From Bacteroidales bacterium (GTDB taxonomy: Bacteria; Bacteroidota; Bacteroidia; Bacteroidales; UBA932), in contig JAEETO010000001.1 of the NCBI GenBank assembly GCA_016290385.1, positions 18,956 to 82,955 of the forward strand: 64,000 nucleotides of DNA. The letters are read 5' to 3'. This document shows positions 38,167-48,397 of the stretch, piece after piece. Each line of letters begins with the position of its first letter. Position 1 is the stretch's first letter. The notes beneath the pieces were generated by a model. It saw only the letters and a program-made list of their open reading frames with translations, was not told the origin of the DNA and searched no databases. Position numbers and translations under genes: made by a program.

Positions 38167-39006
38167 ATGTCAGAAATCGATCCCTATTGGAATAGAGCCC
38201 AGGGCCTGTCGTCCCAGTTCGTGTTCAGTATCCAGAAAGTAGAACGCCGGGGTTTCTACGATGTCTCCGACATCCCCCAGGCCTCGTTGCCCATCTTTAC
38301 CTTCGCGTACCTGACTGAAGGAGAAATCCTCATAGAAATCGAAGGGACGACCCTCCTTTGCAAGGCGAACCAGGTTTTGCTGATACCGGCCAGGACGCCT
38401 TTCCGCATCTTGTATTTCAAGGGAAACTCCGGTTACGAATGTGGCTTTTCGATGCGCGCGCTGAAGGATCCCTCCTATCCGTGCCTGCAAAGCCAGCAGC
38501 CCCAGCTGATATCCTTCTCGGAGAAAGACGCCCTTTTCACCACCATACTGCTGGATGAGCTCCTGACAGCATTCCAGAACGACAACCGGCAAGTTGCAGC
38601 CAGTTCGCTCGACTTGTTCCTGTGCCGCCTCGCCACGCCTGACACGCATCCGGTCAGCCCCATCGTAAACCATTTTCTGGAGATGGTCTTCGACCGTGAG
38701 CGCAAGCCGGGAAAAGTCACCGCTTATGCCGATGAACTCTGTATCACGCCCAATTACCTGAACAGGCTGGTCCGTGCACAGACAGGGCACTCCGCCATGG
38801 ACTGGATCGAAATCTCCCGCCTGAACCTGGCCAAACTGCTGCTCCGGCAGAACAAGTTGCAGATTGCAGAAATCGCTGCCGCTACCGGCATCGACGACCA
38901 GTCGTACTTCACACGCTTCTTCAAGAAAAACGAAGGCTGCACCCCGACACAGTACCGTGACAAGGCCTTGATTGGCATGATTAATCCTGATATTGCCGAC
39001 CGCTAA
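38167..39006 (+). CDS. AraC-family transcriptional regulator
   Basis: Cupin-like N-terminal domain plus the C-terminal double HTH (YADELCITPNYLNRLV...IAEIAAATGIDDQSYFTRFFKK). Confidence 0.8.
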   Translation: MSEIDPYWNRAQGLSSQFVFSIQKVERRGFYDVSDIPQASLPIFTFAYLTEGEILIEIEGTTLLCKANQVLLIPARTPFRILYFKGNSGYECGFSMRALKDPSYPCLQSQQPQLISFSEKDALFTTILLDELLTAFQNDNRQVAASSLDLFLCRLATPDTHPVSPIVNHFLEMVFDRERKPGKVTAYADELCITPNYLNRLVRAQTGHSAMDWIEISRLNLAKLLLRQNKLQIAEIAAATGIDDQSYFTRFFKKNEGCTPTQYRDKALIGMINPDIADR

Positions 39007-39746
39007 GCGAAAAGGATCTCAACACAGAACGAGGACCGGTCACCCACCCGGCCTTCCACCACCCAGCCACCTTCTACCGGCGCACGGAAGATTTCAACGG
39101 TCTCGCCGGCATAAACTTCCTTGTTGAAATTGATCCGGACTGAACGGACACGGCGTGTGGACACTTCCGTATAATCGAGGCAGTCCATGGCCCATACCAC
39201 GTAACGGGCGTTGTTGGCATGTCCCACCAGGTCGATGTCGGAATATCCGATGCGGTGCTCCGCCATCTCTTCAATGGGGCCTTCCGGCATCACCACCTTG
39301 CCGCAAGGCTCATCGATGGCGCTTTCCGCACATTCCGTATCGAGCGGCAGGCGCTCGGCCAGGTGTTCGCGCCGCAGCAGGCGCCGGGATGTGGTGTCGA
39401 TGATCAGCCAGGAAGACGTGGCCAGCACGGCCGGATTCCCCGCCGCATCGAGCATACGGAAATCGCGCACGTAAAAGGGTCCTTCGAAACCCTTGTGCCA
39501 GGTCTGCAGTTCGACGGCCTCACGCCAGCGTGGCATGGCAGGAAACTCCATGTGCATGCGCGACAGCACCCAGGCCGTCCCGAAACGCTCCAAATCCTCA
39601 AAGCCGAAACCGAGCGAGCGGGCCGAAACATACGCAATCTCCTGGGCCATGTCCATAAAGGACCCCGGCTTGAGATAGTGGGCCACATCAGTGGCGAAGC
39701 AGGGCACTGTGAGCCGCTGGATGGTTTTCTTGTCGTTGGTATCCAT
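39003..39746 (-). CDS. Acyl-ACP thioesterase
   Basis: Double hot-dog layout. ATG 39746 (MDTNDKK...) chosen because the ORF-track extension to 40127 overlaps the kinase-AAA gene. Confidence 0.7.
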   Translation of the reverse strand: MDTNDKKTIQRLTVPCFATDVAHYLKPGSFMDMAQEIAYVSARSLGFGFEDLERFGTAWVLSRMHMEFPAMPRWREAVELQTWHKGFEGPFYVRDFRMLDAAGNPAVLATSSWLIIDTTSRRLLRREHLAERLPLDTECAESAIDEPCGKVVMPEGPIEEMAEHRIGYSDIDLVGHANNARYVVWAMDCLDYTEVSTRRVRSVRINFNKEVYAGETVEIFRAPVEGGWVVEGRVGDRSSFCVEILFA

Positions 39747-39757
39747 GATCCGGGATA

Positions 39758-41509
39758 TTAATGATAGCCGATGGGCTGGCGGACGGATTTCTTCCCCAGC
39801 GAAGAGGGATTGCAGCGGATTGAATCTTCGAGGTGGCGCTGCGCGATGGGTTCGTCGGCCAGAGCGGCCACCAGTGCCGCATCGTTGGCGATGAAAGCGA
39901 TATCCGAAGAGGCGTAGCCATCGGTCAGCGCAGCGAGCCGGTCGAAATCGATGTCGTCGGCCAGCGGACGGCCTTTGAGATGATGGATGAACATCTGGCG
40001 GCGGGTCTCCGGCTCCGGGGCCGGCACTTCCACCTGCAGGTCGAGACGCCCCTTCCGCAGGACGGCCGGGTCGATCATGTCCATCCGGTTGGTGGTGCCG
40101 ATGACGAAAATGCCCCGCTGCGCACAATTGTTGAGCTGCGAGAGGAATTCGTTGACTTCCTCCGGACGATGCCGGGCTGCCTCGCTGCCGCGCGCAGGGA
40201 CAAAGGAGTCGAACTCGTCAAAACAGAGCACGGTGGGTGCCTTGGCCGCTGCTTCCTGGAAGAGCGCGGCAATCTTGCCCTGTGTGCCGTGAATGTAGGT
40301 GCTGCCCAGGTCCGAGCCATTGACCACCATGTAGTTGAAGCGCGACTCCTCGGCGAATTTTTCGGCGAAATAGGTCTTTCCGCAGCCCGGCGGGCCGTAG
40401 AGCAGCATGCCGTTGGGCGGAAGGAGCCGGTATTTCTTCGCTTTTTCACGATCGCGCAGTACCCAGATCACACGCTCGGTCAGCATCTTTTTCAGCGATT
40501 CCATGCCGGCCACGTCGGCAAAGCCGCCACTGCGTGTATTGCGTTGCAGGGTCTTCTTCATCTCGGTGCCGTCGGTCGTGGCGACCAGGCCGCCGGCGGA
40601 GGCCTTCTTGGGATTGCCGTTGCGGGAACTGCCGTCCGAGCGCTGCCGAGTATCGACACTGGAATCCGTCAGCATTTCCAGCATCCGGGCCGGTGTCGGA
40701 CGGGCGGAGGGATTGATATTCAGGCCCATCAACACGAGACTTCGCAACATGGGGTCGCTGGCATGAAGGGCGGCAGGCCACACGGGCTGCCGGCGCCGTG
40801 CCTCCAGAATCCGTGCCTTCCGTTCCTCAAAAGATTCACTCTCATCCATGTGCAGGCCCCAGGGCTCCTGCCGGCAGATCAGGGTATAGACCAGCGCCGC
40901 TACGGAAAAAGCATCGCTTGCATCCGAGAAACAGCCGTCCAGCGCTTCGGGTGCCGTATAGATCAGGTTCAGGTCTTCCATCGGGAAGGGCGGCTGTCCG
41001 CCAGTGAGCTCGTGCGAAGCATGGCCCAGATCGATGAGCTTGGGAACCAGGCCGTCACCCGATTCTTCCAGGAGAATGTTGCGTGGGGTGATGTCGTTGT
41101 GAAACAAGCCTTCGCTGCGGAGATAGGCCAGTCCTTCCAGCACATGGCAGGTGATGGTCTTGATTTCAGGACCTGTGAACTGGCGTCCGGCAGCCAGGAA
41201 TTCCGACAGGAGGGAGCCCTTGAAATATTGCATCACCAGATACGGATACGTCTTATCCTGTATCGTCAGCACCCCGTCGGCGACATACGAGATGACGTTG
41301 TGGTGCGACAGGCCGCGGCTGTTGACGATTTCCCCGACCTCTCCTCCGTCGAGCCATTCCGGCGGGATGGCCTGAAGGTCGAACAGCTTCAGGAAAAAAC
41401 GGCCGCCTTTGCCGTCGGCCACCACGTAGTTGCTGTTGAAGACCCCGTCCTTGATGAAACGTTCTACGCGGTAGGGACCGACAAGAGCATCATTTTCCAA
41501 GCGGATCAT
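39758..41509 (-). CDS. Ser/Thr protein kinase - classical AAA+ ATPase fusion protein
   Basis: Kinase core: K in FFLKLF, HNDITPRN, DLG, TAPE. AAA module: Walker A GPPGCGKT, Walker B LCFDEFD, SRH TTNRMDMIDPAVLRKGRLD. First ATG at 41509. A TTG at 41518 directly abuts the upstream stop. Confidence 0.8.
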   Translation of the reverse strand: MIRLENDALVGPYRVERFIKDGVFNSNYVVADGKGGRFFLKLFDLQAIPPEWLDGGEVGEIVNSRGLSHHNVISYVADGVLTIQDKTYPYLVMQYFKGSLLSEFLAAGRQFTGPEIKTITCHVLEGLAYLRSEGLFHNDITPRNILLEESGDGLVPKLIDLGHASHELTGGQPPFPMEDLNLIYTAPEALDGCFSDASDAFSVAALVYTLICRQEPWGLHMDESESFEERKARILEARRRQPVWPAALHASDPMLRSLVLMGLNINPSARPTPARMLEMLTDSSVDTRQRSDGSSRNGNPKKASAGGLVATTDGTEMKKTLQRNTRSGGFADVAGMESLKKMLTERVIWVLRDREKAKKYRLLPPNGMLLYGPPGCGKTYFAEKFAEESRFNYMVVNGSDLGSTYIHGTQGKIAALFQEAAAKAPTVLCFDEFDSFVPARGSEAARHRPEEVNEFLSQLNNCAQRGIFVIGTTNRMDMIDPAVLRKGRLDLQVEVPAPEPETRRQMFIHHLKGRPLADDIDFDRLAALTDGYASSDIAFIANDAALVAALADEPIAQRHLEDSIRCNPSSLGKKSVRQPIGYH

Positions 41510-41518
41510 ACCTGTCAA

Positions 41519-41944
41519 CTATTTGAGTTCAGCCTCTACGTTGATGGATGTCGTGTAAAAAGCCCATTGCTTGATCTCCATGCGCGAGAAGAAGGTCTTG
41601 AGCTGCGGCACGGCGTCGAGGTTCAGCACGGCGCGGCCTCCGGAGAATTCTTCCACCAGGCCGGCGGGCAGTTTTTCCAGGATACGTTTCGCAGCAAAAT
41701 CGAGGGCCATGTTGCCGGCAGCGCCGGCCTTGACCTGAAGCACGGCATGCGGCGGGTTGAAGTCCACCAGCTGCACGTCGGCCGAGACCGTGTGCGTGAC
41801 AGGCTTGTTGATGATCGGAAGGGAAATCGTGGCGTCGTAACTGAGTGTCAGGGTATCCGAATCCTTATACCGTATGCCGATGGTCTGTCCGCTTTTTTCG
41901 CGGATCAGGCGGATCAGTTCGTCGTAGGAAGTTGAAAGAATCAT
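41519..41944 (-). CDS. Hypothetical 141-aa protein, first gene of the kinase-AAA operon
   Basis: ATG 41944 (MILSTSYDEL...). No signal peptide, TM helix or motif recognised. TAAATTTG box at 41965-41972. The stop TAG directly abuts the next ORF. Confidence 0.55.
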   Translation of the reverse strand: MILSTSYDELIRLIREKSGQTIGIRYKDSDTLTLSYDATISLPIINKPVTHTVSADVQLVDFNPPHAVLQVKAGAAGNMALDFAAKRILEKLPAGLVEEFSGGRAVLNLDAVPQLKTFFSRMEIKQWAFYTTSINVEAELK

Positions 41945-41964
41945 GGCTCTCGTCAATTTTTTCT

Positions 41965-41985: not shown

Positions 41986-41993
41986 TATTTTTG
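41986..41993 (+). promoter_or_regulatory. -7 promoter box (TATTTTTG) for the DUF3108-like gene
   Basis: 36 nt upstream of ATG 42030. Confidence 0.4.
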
Positions 41994-42029: not shown

Positions 42030-42734
42030 ATGACCATGAAACGACTTGCGACAATCCTGTTAATCCTGCTGGCAGCCAGTCTCCAGGCACAGTCTTTCTC
42101 CTTCCAGGAAGAGACCCTGGACTATTCCATCCGTCACAATTTGTTCCCGGGCACCATTGGCAGCATGACCTATCATACCCATGACGCGGGCAGCCACTGG
42201 CAGGTCGATGCCACGCTCCAGGCTGCCGTGGGCAGCATCTATACGCTGGACTGCAGCTACGGCTCCATATTCTGCAAGGACGCGGACCTGACACCTGTCT
42301 CCGCCACCCGCAGCCAGACCGAAAAGAAATACTGGGCCAAAGGACGCTATGACTGGTCGGCTCCGGGACAGGTCCACATGGACGTAACCAAGAGCTCCCG
42401 GCCACCCCGCGACGAGACTTTGTCATGGGCCGGAACGGTGCGCGACCTGCTGGGCATGATCTGGTGGCTCCGCACGCTCGACTACGACCAGCCGGGGCTG
42501 AATCCCGGTCCGAACGCCCTGCTGCTCGACCATGACGCCCTGCCGGTGTCCATCTCTTCCTGCCAGAAGAAAACCATCAAGTTCAACGGCCTGCAAGTTC
42601 CCGTCATCGAGGTCATCGTGGCCCAGGACGGCAAGGAGGCCCTGCGCCTGACCCTCACCGACGACGCTCTCCGCAAACCCTTGCGCTTCTCCATCGGCCT
42701 GTCGTTCGGCACGATCAAAGGGACGTTGAAGTAA
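42030..42734 (+). CDS. Secreted DUF3108-like protein
   Basis: Signal peptide MKRLATILLILLAASLQAQS (ATG 42030 or 42036). Beta-rich. The DUF3108 call is from memory of the family pattern only. Confidence 0.45.
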   Translation: MTMKRLATILLILLAASLQAQSFSFQEETLDYSIRHNLFPGTIGSMTYHTHDAGSHWQVDATLQAAVGSIYTLDCSYGSIFCKDADLTPVSATRSQTEKKYWAKGRYDWSAPGQVHMDVTKSSRPPRDETLSWAGTVRDLLGMIWWLRTLDYDQPGLNPGPNALLLDHDALPVSISSCQKKTIKFNGLQVPVIEVIVAQDGKEALRLTLTDDALRKPLRFSIGLSFGTIKGTLK

Positions 42735-42749
42735 CGTATCGAAGTATCC

Positions 42750-44273
42750 ATGCCCCTCTCCCCCATCATCCGTATTCCGTTTAACATCCGCGCCCAGAAG
42801 CTGGAGCGGGATGTGCAGCAGGGGGAGGTGCAGCAGAGGGAGGTGCTGGCGCGACTGGTGCGGACGGCACGGGACACTGAGTTTGGAAAGGCGCATGGCT
42901 TTGCCGGCATCCACGACTACGAGGCATTCGCCCGGTTGGTGCCGGTCAACAGCTACGAGGACCTGAAGGAGGCCATCGACCGCATGCGGCACGGGGAGCG
43001 CGACCTGCTCTGGCCGGGACGCGTGAAATGGTTTGCCAAGTCGTCGGGCACGACCAACGACAAGTCTAAATTCATCCCTGTCAGTGACGCCGGACTGCAC
43101 GACACCCATTACCGGGGAGGCTTCGACACCGTGGCCTTCTATGTGAAAAACAACCCGAAGACCCGCATGTTCGACGGGAAAGGTCTCATCCTGGGTGGCA
43201 GCCACGCCCCGAACTATAATGTAGCCGGATCGATCGTGGGCGACCTGAGCGCCATCCTGATCGAAAACATCAACCCGCTCGTCAACCGGCTCCGCGTGCC
43301 GGCAAAGGAGACGGCGCTGCTTTCCGATTTCGAGACCAAGCGCGATCGCATTGCCCGCGAGACCCTGCACCAGAACGTTACCAACTTCAGCGGCGTGCCT
43401 TCCTGGATGCTCTCGGTGCTGCACCGGGTGCTCGAACTCGCCGGCAAGGACAAACTCGACGACGTGTGGCCCAACCTGGAAGTTTTCATGCACGGCGGCG
43501 TGGCATTCACGCCCTACCGCAAGCAATACGAGCACATCATCACCCTGCCGGACATGCACTACATGGAAACCTACAACGCCAGCGAAGGCTTCTTCGGCAT
43601 CCAGGACGACCCGAACGACCCGGCCCTGCGCCTGATGACGGACTACGGGGTGTTCTATGAGTTCATCCCGATGGACGAATTCGGTCGGGAAAACCCGACG
43701 GTCGTGCCGGTCGGGGGCGTGGAGACCGGACGCAACTACGCCATGGTGATCTCCACCAGCTGCGGCCTGTGGCGCTACCTGATCGGCGACACCGTTCGTT
43801 TTACCTCAACCCGACCCTACAAATTCGTCATTACCGGCCGCACCCGGCACTTCATCAATGCTTTTGGTGAAGAACTCATCGTCGACAATGCAGAAAAGGG
43901 CCTCGCCTGGGCATGCCGGGAGACCGACGCCAGCGTTCTGGAATACACGGCCGCCCCCGTTTTCATGGATGGGAAAGCCCGCTGCCGCCACCAGTGGCTG
44001 ATCGAATTCTCCCGTCCACCCGCCGACCCGGCCCGCTTCGCCAGCCTGCTCGACCACAAATTGCAGGAAATCAACAGCGACTACGAAGCCAAGCGCTTCA
44101 AGGACATCACGCTCCAGGAGCTCGAACTGGTGCAGGCCAGGCCTGGGCTTTTCCACGAATGGATGAAGCAGCGCGGCAAGCTTGGCGGACAGAACAAAGT
44201 CCCGCGCCTGAGCAACAACCGCGATTACATCGAACCGCTGCTGGCTCTCAACAGTACCTCTAAAGGAATTTAA
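42750..44273 (+). CDS. GH3-family (acyl-acid amido synthetase-like, adenylate-forming) protein, copy 1
   Basis: FAKSSGTTNDKSKFIPV adenylation motif, YNASEGFFG and YEFIP blocks, as in GH3 auxin-responsive-promoter family proteins. Confidence 0.75.
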   Translation: MPLSPIIRIPFNIRAQKLERDVQQGEVQQREVLARLVRTARDTEFGKAHGFAGIHDYEAFARLVPVNSYEDLKEAIDRMRHGERDLLWPGRVKWFAKSSGTTNDKSKFIPVSDAGLHDTHYRGGFDTVAFYVKNNPKTRMFDGKGLILGGSHAPNYNVAGSIVGDLSAILIENINPLVNRLRVPAKETALLSDFETKRDRIARETLHQNVTNFSGVPSWMLSVLHRVLELAGKDKLDDVWPNLEVFMHGGVAFTPYRKQYEHIITLPDMHYMETYNASEGFFGIQDDPNDPALRLMTDYGVFYEFIPMDEFGRENPTVVPVGGVETGRNYAMVISTSCGLWRYLIGDTVRFTSTRPYKFVITGRTRHFINAFGEELIVDNAEKGLAWACRETDASVLEYTAAPVFMDGKARCRHQWLIEFSRPPADPARFASLLDHKLQEINSDYEAKRFKDITLQELELVQARPGLFHEWMKQRGKLGGQNKVPRLSNNRDYIEPLLALNSTSKGI

Positions 44274-44943
44274 CGAAACCCCGGACGATAAAAAAAGCGC
44301 CGAATACGACCAGGCCGATGCCGATCGCCCGATTCAATAATTGCAGACGCCGGGGATTGAAGAAACGCTGAAGGGAGGTGGCCGCCTTGGCCTTGAGAAG
44401 ATCGCAGCCAAAACTCGTGGCCAGGGTGATGGCGAAAAAGAGCAAGGTCTGGGCCTTGTTCCCTTCGAAATTTCCGGAAGCAACGGCCACGGCACTCAGC
44501 CAGAACAACAGTACAAAAGGATTCAGGATATTGAGAAAGAAGCCCTTGCCAAAAAACACGAACCAGCTCGGCGCTTTTTCGGGATTGGGCAGCTTACCGC
44601 CAGACTCCTCCATGGCCTTCATGCGATCCAACATCTGCTTGTAGGCATCGTCCCCACCCCGTTTGAAATAGGTATACAACCCGAAAAGGATCAGAATGAT
44701 GCCGGCACCGATGCTGAACAGGAACATTTCCCGGTCGTTTTCGGCCACCAGCCGGATGGATGTCAGCACGCAGAGCGACACGATCATCATGTCGCAGAAC
44801 AGGACACCGAGCGCCAGCCAGGCCGCGCAGCGGAAGCCCCGGTCGATACTGGTCTGCAGGAGGGTAAAAAAAGCCGGACCGAATCCGAAGACCAGCGCCA
44901 GCGTCAGGCCGAAGACGACCGCATCGAAAAACAACTTGCCCAT
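44260..44943 (-). CDS. LysE/RhtB-type amino-acid exporter
   Basis: Six-helix protein with the N-terminal block FGLTLALVFGFGPAFFTLLQTSI. ATG 44943 overlaps the TGA of the upstream GH3 gene (TGATG). Confidence 0.65.
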   Translation of the reverse strand: MGKLFFDAVVFGLTLALVFGFGPAFFTLLQTSIDRGFRCAAWLALGVLFCDMMIVSLCVLTSIRLVAENDREMFLFSIGAGIILILFGLYTYFKRGGDDAYKQMLDRMKAMEESGGKLPNPEKAPSWFVFFGKGFFLNILNPFVLLFWLSAVAVASGNFEGNKAQTLLFFAITLATSFGCDLLKAKAATSLQRFFNPRRLQLLNRAIGIGLVVFGAFFIVRGFVKFL

Positions 44944-46493
44944 CACTTCAGAGACGCTATATAGTCCTTCCAAAGAGCGTATCGTTGTCCCTTGAGCACA
45001 CGCGGAAACTTGGTAGCCCCACCCCACTTGCCAATCTTCTCTTCCATGAATTTGTAGAACACATGCGTGGGCAGCACGTCGAGATAGAGCTCACGGATGG
45101 CCTCGGTGCGCTCCACGGCATAGTCATCGTTGAGCTGGCAGAGATAACTGTCGATCTTGCGGATGGCTTCCTGTGGATCGATGGCTTCGTCGCTGCCCAG
45201 ATACCAGTGGTGCGCGTACATCGTACCGTACTCCTCGCCTGCCACGGTGAATTCCGTGATATTCACGCCGAGCTCTTCGGAGAGCATTTCCACCGCCCGG
45301 GTGATGTTGTCCTGCGAGAGATGTTCGCCGGTGATGCTCAGGAACTGTTTGGTGCGGCCTGTGATGACAATGTCACAGGTTTCCTTGTCCAGAAAACGGA
45401 TGGTATCGCCAATCAGGTAGCGCCAGGTGCCCGCACAGGTGGAAAGCAGCAGGGCATAATCGACACCCTCCCGGACTTCCGACAGGGTCAGGGTCTCGGG
45501 CTGGGCCACAATATCTCCGTTGTCGTTGAAATTCATCTCGTTGAAAGGCACGAATTCGAAGTAGATGCCGTTGTCGACCAGTAGCTGCATCACGCGTCGC
45601 TTGAGGTCGACCTGGTAAGCGATGTAGCCTTCGGATGCCAGGTAGCTTTCCACAAAGATGACCTCTTTCCCGAAAATGCGTTCGAAACTCTTCTCATAGG
45701 GAGCGAAGGCCACGCCGCTATGGACATATACCCGCAGGTTCGGCCACAGGTCGTGGATAGTATTGAGGTGGTATTCCTTGATGATGCGCTCCAGCAGGAT
45801 CTGGACCCAGGCAGGCACACCAACCACAACGCCGATATCCCATTTCGGGGCAGCCTTGACCATCTCGTCAAGTTTCTCCGACCAGTCCTTGATCTTGGAA
45901 ATCCGCTGGCCCGGCTTGTAAAAGAACTCGAACCACTTAGGGATGCGGCTGGCCGAGATGCCCGAAAGGTCGCCCGCATAGTAACCGCCGGCCCGGCTGT
46001 ACGACAGCTCCGTGCTGCCGCCGATCATCAGGACGCCCTTATTGTAGAACTCGGCCGGGAAGTCATAGCGTACGGCAGAAACCAGTTGCCGGATGCTCGC
46101 TTTCGTGATGGAGGCGTTCAGCGCCCGGGTGATGGGGATGTACTTGCTGGAAGCCTCGGACGTGCCGCTGCTCAGGGCAAAGTACTTGACCCGCCCCGGC
46201 CAGCTGACGTTGTGCTCCCCGTTGAGTGAACGGTACCACCACTGGTCGTGCATCTTGTTGTAATCAAAGACAGGCACCCTACGGCGGAAAGACTCCACCA
46301 TGTTGCCGGAACGCAGGATCTCGGAAAAATGGTAGGTCCGGCCGAATTCGGTATCCTTGGCCTTCCGCAGCAGTTTCTTCAATTCTTTCTGCTGCGCTTT
46401 CACGGGTTTCACGCGTCGCTGTTTGCGCTCCACCGGAATGTTTTTCAATTCGGCGGCCGCCTTGATGATGGTTCCTAACAAGGGTACGGGCAT
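44943..46493 (-). CDS. GH3-family protein, copy 2
   Basis: FALSSGTSEASSKYIPI, YLASEGYIAYQ and YFEFVP blocks. ATG 46493 (MPVPLLG..., parallel to the MPLSPII... start of copy 1) preferred over TTG 46505. Confidence 0.75.
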   Translation of the reverse strand: MPVPLLGTIIKAAAELKNIPVERKQRRVKPVKAQQKELKKLLRKAKDTEFGRTYHFSEILRSGNMVESFRRRVPVFDYNKMHDQWWYRSLNGEHNVSWPGRVKYFALSSGTSEASSKYIPITRALNASITKASIRQLVSAVRYDFPAEFYNKGVLMIGGSTELSYSRAGGYYAGDLSGISASRIPKWFEFFYKPGQRISKIKDWSEKLDEMVKAAPKWDIGVVVGVPAWVQILLERIIKEYHLNTIHDLWPNLRVYVHSGVAFAPYEKSFERIFGKEVIFVESYLASEGYIAYQVDLKRRVMQLLVDNGIYFEFVPFNEMNFNDNGDIVAQPETLTLSEVREGVDYALLLSTCAGTWRYLIGDTIRFLDKETCDIVITGRTKQFLSITGEHLSQDNITRAVEMLSEELGVNITEFTVAGEEYGTMYAHHWYLGSDEAIDPQEAIRKIDSYLCQLNDDYAVERTEAIRELYLDVLPTHVFYKFMEEKIGKWGGATKFPRVLKGQRYALWKDYIASLK

Positions 46494-46513
46494 GGTCTGG
46501 TTCAATTATCGCG

Positions 46514-46521
46514 CAAAATTA
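46514..46521 (-). promoter_or_regulatory. -7 promoter box (TAATTTTG) for GH3 copy 2
   Basis: The plus strand reads CAAAATTA. 20 nt upstream of ATG 46493. Confidence 0.4.
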
Positions 46522-46543
46522 GCGATTTCTTACAAAGAATCAT

Positions 46544-46551
46544 TAATTTTG
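46544..46551 (+). promoter_or_regulatory. -7 promoter box (TAATTTTG) for the glsA-like gene
   Basis: 33 nt upstream of ATG 46585. Confidence 0.4.
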
Positions 46552-46584
46552 TATTTTTAATGCTATAGATCGATACCGCAAGTC

Positions 46585-47415
46585 ATGCCTGTCAACGAAA
46601 CCGTCATCCTCGACCTGGACGCCATCGTCCAAAGTCGTTTCGGCGATAAGAAGATTCCCAAGCCGCTCCTCCGCTGGTTCAAGAAGTTCATCCACCAGGA
46701 TCACATGAACGGCTACCTGAAGCAGGGATGGCTTGGCGTTGAGTTCGCCGAACAGGCACTAGTCTACTACGATGTCCACCTCACCGTGAAAGGCCTGGAT
46801 GAAATCCCCGTCGACGGCCGCTACACCTTCGCCGGCAACCACCCGCTGGGAGGCATCGACGCCCTGAGCGTGATTGGGCAGGTGGGCCGCAAGTTCGACG
46901 GCAAGATCGTGATCCCGGCCAACGACCTGCTGATGGCCATCAAGCCCATCGCGGAGTACACCGTACCCGTCAACAAGTTCGGCGGCCAGAGTGCCGACCT
47001 GGTCGGAAAGATCAACGACGCCTTCAATTCCGACCGCCAGGTCATCATCTTTCCGGCCGGCTTGTGCTCCCGCAAAATCGACGGCGTGGTGCAGGACCTC
47101 CCCTGGAAGAAAACCTTCATCACCAAAAGCCGGATGTCACAACGCGACATCGTACCCGTCTGGTTCAGCGGCGAGAACTCCCGTCGCTTCTATCGCATCG
47201 ACCAATTGCGGAACCTGCTCAAACTCAAACTGAACATCGCCATGCTTACGCTTCCCGACGAGTTGTACAAGACCCAGCACAAATCCTACACACTGGTCTT
47301 CGGAAAACCCATTCCCTGGCAGACCTTCACTTCCGACAAACGCGACACGGAATGGGCCGCCTGGGTCCGGGAAAAAGTCTATGAGCTGAAAAACAAGGAA
47401 TCGCATGAAAGCTAA
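46585..47415 (+). CDS. Lysophospholipid/1-acyl-glycerol-3-phosphate acyltransferase-family O-acyltransferase (GlsA-like)
   Basis: PlsC-type motif FAGNHPLGGIDAL and IFPAG. Sits beside the N-acyltransferase gene, as in the Bacteroides glycine-lipid locus. Confidence 0.7.
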   Translation: MPVNETVILDLDAIVQSRFGDKKIPKPLLRWFKKFIHQDHMNGYLKQGWLGVEFAEQALVYYDVHLTVKGLDEIPVDGRYTFAGNHPLGGIDALSVIGQVGRKFDGKIVIPANDLLMAIKPIAEYTVPVNKFGGQSADLVGKINDAFNSDRQVIIFPAGLCSRKIDGVVQDLPWKKTFITKSRMSQRDIVPVWFSGENSRRFYRIDQLRNLLKLKLNIAMLTLPDELYKTQHKSYTLVFGKPIPWQTFTSDKRDTEWAAWVREKVYELKNKESHES

Positions 47416-48397
47416 AACCATCATCGCTCCCGTCGACAAGGAGCTGCTCAAACAGGAACTCACCGACAAACATTTCCTGCGCGACACCAACCACGCAGGA
47501 AACAAACTCTATATCGTTGACAACCAATGTGCGCCGAATGTGCTTCGAGAAATCGGCCGCCTGCGGGAAATAGCGTTTCGTGAAGGAGGCGGCGGAACAG
47601 GCAAGGAAGTTGACCTCGACGCCTTCGACCTTGACCCGGCCTTCAAATACAAACAGCTCGTGCTCTGGGATCCGGATGCCGAATGCATCATCGGCGGTTA
47701 CCGCTATGTCCTTTGTGACGAAGTGATGTACGACCGCTTCGGCCAGCCCATCATGCCGTCTGCCCATCTGTTCCGCTTCACCCAGCACTTCCTGCATAAT
47801 GGTTTCCTGCGCACCATCGAGCTCAGCCGTTCGTTCATCCGGCCGGAATATCAGAGCTCGGAGCGGGGCATGAAGAGCCTCTACGCCCTTGACAATCTCT
47901 TCGACGGTCTGGGCGGCCTGATCGTACTCTATAAGGGACGTATGGACTATTTCTTTGGTAAAATGACGATCTACCCGTCATTCCCCGAAAGAGGCCTGGG
48001 CCTGCTGCTCTTCTTCCTGCGCAAGCATTTCGGATCCTGGGAGGCCGAATTGCAGGAGCGCTTTGACCGCATGGTTATCCCGAAGAAACCCGTAAAAATC
48101 AGAATGTCAAAGGAATACAGCGAAATCCTCACCGAAGAAGACTTCGCTGCCGACTACAAGATTCTCAAACGGGAAATCCAGCAGATGGGCGTCAACATCC
48201 CTCCGCTGGTCAATACATACATGAATATGTCGCCGACGATGAAGTCGTTCGGCGCTGGCATCAACGACGAATTCGGTGATGTCATCGAGGCGGGCATCCT
48301 CATCAAGTTCGACGAGATGCACCCGGACAAGGCGCGGCGCCACCTCAATTTTCCGGCACTGGACCGCTACCGGATGCGGTTCCTGCGGAGCAAATAG
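47405..48397 (+). CDS. GNAT-type amino-acid N-acyltransferase (GlsB/OlsB-like, hemolysin-like)
   Basis: EIGRLREIAFREGGGGTGKEVDLDAFD...LVLWDPD block typical of the OlsB/GlsB family. 11-nt overlap with the previous gene. Confidence 0.7.
   Translation: MKAKTIIAPVDKELLKQELTDKHFLRDTNHAGNKLYIVDNQCAPNVLREIGRLREIAFREGGGGTGKEVDLDAFDLDPAFKYKQLVLWDPDAECIIGGYRYVLCDEVMYDRFGQPIMPSAHLFRFTQHFLHNGFLRTIELSRSFIRPEYQSSERGMKSLYALDNLFDGLGGLIVLYKGRMDYFFGKMTIYPSFPERGLGLLLFFLRKHFGSWEAELQERFDRMVIPKKPVKIRMSKEYSEILTEEDFAADYKILKREIQQMGVNIPPLVNTYMNMSPTMKSFGAGINDEFGDVIEAGILIKFDEMHPDKARRHLNFPALDRYRMRFLRSK

Follow-up and report, generated by a model that had tools for sequence, protein, structure and literature searches.

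We analyzed a 64,000-nucleotide (nt) stretch of DNA from a Bacteroidales metagenome-assembled genome (MAG; GenBank GCA_016290385.1, contig JAEETO010000001.1, positions 18,956 to 82,955), referred to here as “the window”, in which two genes encoding GH3-family enzymes (GH3-1 and GH3-2) lie beside a gene for a LysE/RhtB-family membrane protein (“LysE”) and the glycine-lipid genes glsA and glsB. The most probable explanation of this neighborhood, in our view, is that three units, each conserved independently, were recently brought together in this lineage: GH3-2/LysE, DUF3108/GH3-1, and glsA-glsB. Judged from its distribution among genomes, the GH3-2/LysE unit appears to be an old, deeply conserved, translationally coupled two-gene operon that works without GlsB and is uncharacterized. 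A make-and-export module is a reasonable interpretation of this pair. Here, we describe the evidence for each unit, the properties of the encoded proteins, and the alternative explanations.

Genes were identified by listing open reading frames (ORFs) and by profile searches against Pfam and NCBIfam with curated cut-offs. A reading made from the DNA letters alone (the “sequence-only reading”) had proposed the order and identities of the genes at 42030–48397, and our searches confirm it for all six. In window coordinates, with protein lengths in amino acids (aa), the features are as follows:

42030–42734, + strand, DUF3108 secreted protein; PF11306, E 3.8e-11; signal-peptide-like N-terminus MTMKRLATILLILLAASLQAQS
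42750–44273, + strand, GH3-1; 507 aa; three Pfam GH3 domains, E 5.9e-55, 4.8e-19, and 1.8e-27; motif FAKSSGTTNDKSKFIPV
44260–44943, − strand, LysE/RhtB-family membrane protein; 227 aa; PF01810, 70.6 bits (cut-off 25.6)
44943–46493 (ATG start, 516 aa) or to 46505 (upstream TTG, 520 aa), − strand, GH3-2; three Pfam GH3 domains; motif FALSSGTSEASSKYIPI
46506–46584, AT-rich divergent intergenic region of 79 nt between GH3-2 and glsA; two back-to-back boxes TAATTTTG, one per strand
46585–47415, + strand, GlsA, lyso-glycine-lipid O-acyltransferase; NF053697 equivalog, 310.8 bits (cut-off 260); PF19576, E 1.6e-59
47405–48397, + strand, GlsB, glycine N-acyltransferase; NF053696 equivalog, 376.7 bits (cut-off 300); PF13444, E 3.2e-11

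The DUF3108 gene ends 15 nt upstream of GH3-1, GH3-1 and LysE are convergent with a 14-nt overlap, and glsA shares its last 11 nt with glsB. GH3-1 and GH3-2, which are 32% identical to one another, are the only GH3 genes in the 2.36-Mb MAG (83.5% complete).

Conservation of the GH3-2/LysE pair

The stop codon of GH3-2 and the start codon of LysE share one base (AAG TGATG GGC), as the sequence-only reading had observed. In ~60 of 78 public loci with GH3-2 relatives, GH3-2 followed by LysE, and nothing else, is kept. GH3-2 belongs to a clade of GH3 proteins that we call clade C (see below). In a sample of 200 Bacteroidales genomes drawn evenly across many families, clade C is represented by 64 genes in 62 genomes, and 57 of these genes are followed immediately, on the same strand, by a LysE homolog (median gap ~40 nt). 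In other orders, LysE is next in line for 10 of 15 clade-C orthologs with at least 46% identity (in one of these ten, after an intervening ORF); LysE identity in these orders falls to 24–35%. Same-strand adjacency of GH3-2 and LysE holds across families and orders.

The LysE protein has about six hydrophobic segments, with peaks at residues 4–22, 43–61, 73–91, ~130–154, 167–185, and 202–227. Together with a PF01810 score above the gathering threshold, these place it in the LysE/RhtB family, whose exporters (LysE, ArgO, RhtB, and RhtC) it resembles in having the Pfam LysE domain, a length of ~210–230 aa, and ~six transmembrane (TM) segments. It differs from them in falling far below every NCBIfam equivalog or subfamily cut-off, such that it belongs to none of the characterized subfamilies (RhtB/RhtC, LysE, or ArgO): it scores 41.6 bits against a cut-off of 183.95 for TIGR00949, and 22.1 against 288 for RhtC. 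Its best NCBIfam match, far under the cut-off, is the homoserine/threonine efflux subfamily. To our knowledge, an operon partnership between a LysE/RhtB protein and a GH3 enzyme has not been described.

We considered whether other genes share in the pairing. A T9SS-tailed protein (T9SS, type IX secretion system) is recurrent upstream of GH3-2/LysE, and is less conserved than LysE. The further conserved neighbors, i.e., RecJ, PurH, MnmA, and a pseudouridine synthase, are housekeeping genes, and none matches the conservation of LysE. Where clade-C genes lack LysE, no other transporter stands in its place; the neighbors are a PNP oxidase, an outer membrane protein barrel, riboflavin synthase, and an anthranilate-synthase-like gene. 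In ~21 related loci (L010, L014, and others), a 191-aa DUF308/HdeD-like membrane protein that is absent from the window is encoded after LysE. Separately, in two genomes (G366:C94:7536–8150 and G243:C285:6692–7306, the latter in L213), the frame that holds the LysE-subfamily gene is 430 aa long, roughly double the usual size, which suggests fusion with another domain.

GH3 enzymes: family, motifs, and clades

Both GH3 proteins belong to the GH3 superfamily, with three domains above the gathering score and the characteristic motif set. For PF03321, PF23571, and PF23572 (the N-terminal, central, and C-terminal domains; cut-off 23.6 bits each), GH3-1 scores 187.1, 68.7, and 96.8 bits, and GH3-2 scores 120.6, 59.4, and 39.5 bits. 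The three nucleotide-binding motifs and the C-terminal Lys-x-Pro-Arg of the catalytic-lysine region are intact in both: SSGTT (98), YNASEG (277), YLIGD (346), and KVPR (483) in GH3-1, and SSGTS (112), YLASEG (290), YLIGD (366), and KFPR (499) in GH3-2. Both are most likely ATP-dependent acid-amino-acid ligases, as predicted from these domains and motifs.

In a search of the Protein Data Bank (PDB) by sequence, the closest solved matches are plant GH3 structures, with E values down to 4.7e-22 for GH3-1 and 4.5e-13 for GH3-2. The window proteins share the three-domain architecture and conserved motifs of the plant enzymes (JAR1, GH3.5, GH3.6, GH3.8, and GH3.12; PDB 4EPL, 5KOD, 7DK8, and 4B2G). 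They differ in being shorter (~510 aa versus ~580–610 aa), in having low sequence similarity, and in their bacterial context, with substrates that are probably lipidic.

A maximum-likelihood tree of 78 GH3 proteins sorts those of the class Bacteroidia into three clades: A, B, and C, with SH-aLRT (Shimodaira–Hasegawa-like approximate likelihood ratio test) support of 99, 100, and 100, respectively, and a long stem (0.9) for clade C. GH3-1 falls inside the Bacteroidales part of clade A, and GH3-2 inside clade C. GH3-1 is 60–72% identical to its orthologs in Prevotella, Xylanibacter, Bacteroides, Phocaeicola, and Alistipes. Clade A is present in 162 of the 200 Bacteroidales genomes and in nearly all sampled genomes of the class, and in each of five named genomes (Bacteroides, Phocaeicola, Xylanibacter, Hoylesella, and Alistipes) there is exactly one GH3 gene, of clade A. 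GH3-1 is the core Bacteroidia GH3, and the sole GH3 in the Bacteroides, Phocaeicola, Prevotellaceae, and Alistipes genomes checked.

A few GH3 genes depart from this picture. A clade-C GH3 in the gammaproteobacterium Glaciecola amylolytica (CP034120.1, 4076753–4098261; L080) is near-identical to one from a Flavobacteriales UBA7666 MAG (L079); the two have tree branches of 0.035 and 0.056 and the same neighboring gene clusters, which suggests either that the gene was transferred horizontally not long ago or that the record is mislabelled. A GH3 homolog from another class of the phylum sits within a 1201-aa open frame (G035:C1:1464930–1466411), and two small Bacteroidales genomes (G074 and G118) have only weak GH3-like matches, inside frames of 566–761 aa. 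These three genomes may hold fused or highly divergent forms of GH3.

The GH3-1/DUF3108 unit

In 54 of 80 Bacteroidales loci with GH3-1 orthologs, a DUF3108 gene follows the GH3 gene. The usual order at such loci is acpP-fabF-rnc-(pfkA)-GH3, then a gene for a 650-aa Big_5 lipoprotein, then DUF3108; in the window and its close relatives, DUF3108 lies directly upstream of GH3-1 instead. The link between clade A and DUF3108 therefore survives rearrangement, since it is found in two different gene orders. In this MAG, the Big_5 lipoprotein gene is split over two contig ends (C91:72–722 and C1:52–984).

An AlphaFold2 model of the DUF3108 protein (predicted local distance difference test score of 83) is an all-beta barrel, and its best PDB match, a moderate one, is the Brucella DUF1849 protein 6NTR (template modeling score 0.55); the lipid-binding half-barrels LprG, LppX, and LolA rank far below 6NTR in the fold search. 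The model suggests a periplasmic or envelope role. A sequence search of the PDB with DUF3108 gave no match, and a literature search found no function for DUF3108.

In other Bacteroidia orders, clade A is commonly found on the same strand in the order recJ-lptB-GH3 (L184–L203). The lptB gene encodes the ATPase of lipopolysaccharide transport, and this context is a further hint of an envelope-lipid role for the core GH3. In a genome of the same family as the window (G338; L242, 9553–12079), the clade-A GH3 gene extends into the start of a downstream gene for a LuxE-like acyl-protein synthetase (PF04443), which is a second adenylating enzyme.

The glsA-glsB unit and the wider cluster

The genes that the sequence-only reading had called GlsA/GlsB-like both exceed the NCBIfam equivalog cut-offs, and are adjacent and overlapping; on these scores, we take them to be bona fide glycine-lipid genes. 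They match the Bacteroides GlsB/GlsA pathway (BT_3459/BT_3458; Lynch et al. 2019, as cited in PMC12971839 and PMC12746155) at the equivalog level and in forming an overlapping operon. The GH3 proteins are unrelated in sequence to GlsB and GlsA.

The three units are rarely found together. The sequence-only reading had staked its proposal on conservation of a GH3-LysE-GH3 triad and on its synteny with the Gls genes, and neither is borne out: the full GlsB-GlsA/GH3-2-LysE/GH3-1 arrangement occurs in only three of the 78 GH3-2 loci. These are L004–L006, the closest relatives of the window, with 93–97% identity; in L006, the arrangement continues into DUF3108 and an acyl-acyl carrier protein (ACP) thioesterase gene. 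A search within 10 kb of the 80 GH3-1 orthologs found no GlsA, GlsB, or LysE gene, and none of 200 phylum-level genomes has a GH3 gene within ~60 kb of GlsB or OlsF. In Bacteroides, Prevotella, and Phocaeicola, glsAB and the GH3 gene are in different places, and glsAB normally stands alone. These synteny data rule out a conserved triad or a conserved Gls-linked locus, and the wider cluster itself is best read, from this comparison of gene orders, as a recent juxtaposition within one genus-level lineage. In G338, an OlsF gene lies 7.4 kb from the clade-A GH3; unrelated housekeeping genes lie between them, and we do not consider this a cluster.

The independence of GH3-2/LysE from GlsB is further seen in one family (f5), in which clades A, B, and C are all represented and clade C is accompanied by LysE: a GlsB/OlsF match is absent from 11 of its 12 genomes and the PF13444 domain is absent from four of five. 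The proposal in the sequence-only reading of a locus for making and exporting acyl-amino-acid conjugates is reasonable for GH3-2 plus LysE, which are a conserved pair, and is unsupported for the triad and for adjacency to glsAB, which are not conserved.

Characterized relatives and a possible mechanism

The same reading held that bacterial GH3 paralogs lack assigned substrates, a view overtaken by the 2025 description of OlsH, a GH3 enzyme from the planctomycete Singulisphaera acidiphila, which converts free fatty acid and ornithine to N-acyl-ornithine with ATP and Mg2+, and has no requirement for coenzyme A (CoA) or ACP (PMC12493201). The same study found >7,500 bacterial GH3 homologs, almost 90% of them in Bacteroidota, and its authors considered that GH3s of the Cytophaga–Flavobacterium–Bacteroides (CFB) group, i.e., Bacteroidota, probably use amino acids other than ornithine, because OlsB/OlsF homologs already make ornithine lipid there (PMC12493201). 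A 2026 review repeats the OlsH findings (PMC12971839). Our literature search found neither a characterized Bacteroidota GH3 nor a serine ligase.

The window GH3s are in the same superfamily as OlsH and have the same three nucleotide-binding motifs. The profile OlsH_GH3_orni is the best NCBIfam match for both GH3-1 (E 5.8e-132) and GH3-2 (E 9.4e-100). The window enzymes probably share the chemistry of OlsH, in which ATP drives the joining of an acid to an amino acid through an amide bond and neither CoA nor ACP is involved. There are also differences. First, GH3-1 and GH3-2 score 440.8 and 334.6 bits, respectively, below the NF052613 cut-off of 620. Second, no OlsI-type alpha/beta hydrolase O-acyltransferase adjoins either window GH3; OlsH and OlsI homologs are likewise not in one operon in the CFB group (PMC12493201). 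Third, pairing with LysE or DUF3108 has not been described for OlsH.

We propose that GH3-2, acting in the cytoplasm, would activate a carboxylic acid by adenylation (most plausibly a fatty acid, the kind of acid that OlsH uses) and join it to an amino acid through the amino group of the latter. The resulting anionic conjugate would then be carried into or across the inner membrane by the small six-TM LysE/RhtB-type protein. GH3-1 would be a second acid-amino-acid ligase, probably tied to an envelope lipid, since it is linked in Bacteroidales to the secreted DUF3108 barrel. The glsA-glsB genes are the known glycine-lipid pair.

Several points weigh against this interpretation. Both GH3s are below the OlsH equivalog cut-off, and we infer their acid and amino-acid substrates, as we do the direction and cargo of LysE and any shared fatty-acid supply (e.g., from the acyl-ACP thioesterase). 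The LysE family is known for transporting small amino acids, not amphiphiles, and the cargo could instead be the amino-acid substrate. Fifteen sampled genomes keep the LysE subfamily without a clade-C GH3, and seven clade-C genes are without LysE; coupling of the two genes is therefore strong but not obligatory. The three amide-lipid-type units lie within 6.4 kb and share a divergent promoter region, which may reflect a functional link that our interpretation makes secondary. Lastly, clade A and GlsB tend to be lost together in Bacteroidales: of the 11 genomes among the 200 with no GlsB/OlsF match, clade A is missing from nine (and clade C from all 11), versus from 29 of the 189 with GlsB (odds ratio ~25, Fisher p ~6e-6, uncorrected for phylogeny).

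Alternative explanations

A first possibility is that the cluster is one integrated pathway, in which a GH3 enzyme (most likely GH3-1, i.e., clade A) adenylates the carboxylate of the N-acyl-glycine product of GlsB/GlsA and ligates L-serine to it, yielding Ser-Gly dipeptide lipids (flavolipin, lipid 654/430, and doreamides). GH3 chemistry, i.e., adenylation of a carboxylate and attack by an amino-acid amine, is exactly what the serine-ligation step needs. As of December 2025, the serine-ligating gene for the glycine lipid “remains to be identified”, and the Pfam search in that paper omitted the GH3 domain PF03321 (PMC12746155). E. coli carrying glsAB makes glycine lipids and no dipeptide lipid, such that a gene beyond glsAB is needed (PMC12746155). 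Moreover, the joint loss of clade A and GlsB fits such a pathway, a single GH3 gene, of clade A, is present in each of the five named genomes listed above, and in the lineage of the window the GH3 genes have moved next to glsAB. However, that adjacency is confined to one genus-level lineage, clade A is found in f5 genomes without any GlsB/OlsF-type domain and in two Bacteroidales genomes without GlsB, and plain fatty acids are the substrates of the only characterized bacterial GH3. The joint loss could plausibly be confounded by genome reduction, because the genomes that lack both genes are mostly small (1.8–2.8 Mb). We therefore regard an integrated pathway as unlikely. The related proposal, that GH3-1 and its single-copy orthologs in Bacteroides, Phocaeicola, Prevotella, and related genera are ATP-dependent L-serine/N-acyl-glycine ligases, with GH3-2/LysE a separate synthetase-plus-exporter for another N-acyl amino acid, is attractive but similarly tentative, given its mixed phyletic pattern, and we would not favor it at present.

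A second possibility is that the GH3s are not lipid enzymes, and instead conjugate small aromatic or short-chain acids (indole-3-acetate, phenylacetate, or benzoates, which are abundant in the rumen and gut) to amino acids, with LysE exporting the soluble conjugate for detoxification or signaling. The nearest solved structures are indeed plant amido synthetases for indole-3-acetate, jasmonate, and benzoate; LysE/RhtB proteins are known for small polar cargo, with homoserine/threonine efflux as the best, if sub-threshold, match of the window protein; and a GH3 gene mattered for rhizosphere fitness in a randomly barcoded transposon sequencing (RB-TnSeq) study of a plant-associated Bacteroidota strain (PMC13440311). 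Nonetheless, clades A and C are spread over marine, soil, gut, and rumen Bacteroidia, regardless of habitat, and clade A adjoins acpP-fabF, lptB, or genes for envelope proteins rather than aromatic-acid genes. The sole biochemical data on a bacterial GH3 concern fatty-acid substrates. A small-acid role thus seems quite improbable.

It is very unlikely that LysE is not the exporter of the GH3-2 product but balances the pool of the amino-acid substrate, by export or uptake, or is merely a co-regulated membrane protein that has no direct mechanistic tie to GH3-2: the genomes in which either gene occurs without the other fit such a role, as does a transport direction that is only inferred, but same-strand adjacency at ~40 nt, kept across families and orders while LysE identity falls so low, would be difficult to account for if the two genes had no direct functional link. 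Juxtaposition of three independently conserved units remains our preferred explanation of the stretch.

Promoter-like elements and neighboring genes

The two boxes in the divergent intergenic region lie at 46544–46551 (+ strand), 34 nt before the glsA ATG, and at 46521–46514 (− strand), 20 nt before the GH3-2 ATG. A TAnnTTTG box is also found upstream of the DUF3108 gene, at 41986–41993. TAnnTTTG is the −7 promoter consensus of Bacteroides, and the TAATTTTG boxes fit this consensus; they are predicted promoter elements. A scan of the DNA for sigma-70 promoters and terminators gave results no higher than expected from shuffled sequence, with a model ill-suited to Bacteroidota.

Further upstream in the window is one context gene of possible relevance:

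39003–39746, − strand, acyl-ACP thioesterase; 247 aa; PF01643, E 2.2e-15; PF20791, E 3.7e-13

This enzyme is a possible supplier of free fatty acids, with a putative tie to the GH3 genes. A kinase-AAA fusion gene and a 145-aa ORF (39758–41956) separate it from the DUF3108 gene. In the relative locus L006, the thioesterase gene directly adjoins the DUF3108 gene, so the two intervening genes look like an insertion into a lipid cluster.

Implications

Bacteroidota hold most bacterial GH3 homologs, and are the phylum for which our literature search found no GH3 with an assigned product. Here, Bacteroidia GH3s are sorted into three old clades, one of which forms a stable operon with a gene for a LysE-type membrane protein, while the core clade is the only one retained in the gut Bacteroides, Prevotellaceae, and Alistipes genomes checked. 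This bears on which enzymes make the orphan N-acyl amino acids and aminolipids of Bacteroidota, and on how these products exit the cytoplasm. If the make-and-export interpretation is correct, the conserved GH3-2/LysE operon would be an undescribed synthetase-plus-exporter system. GH3-1 is a candidate for the missing step of an inflammatory bacterial lipid pathway; if it were the serine ligase, the missing step would have been found for lipid 654 and the doreamides, lipids from gut and oral microbiota that act on TLR2.

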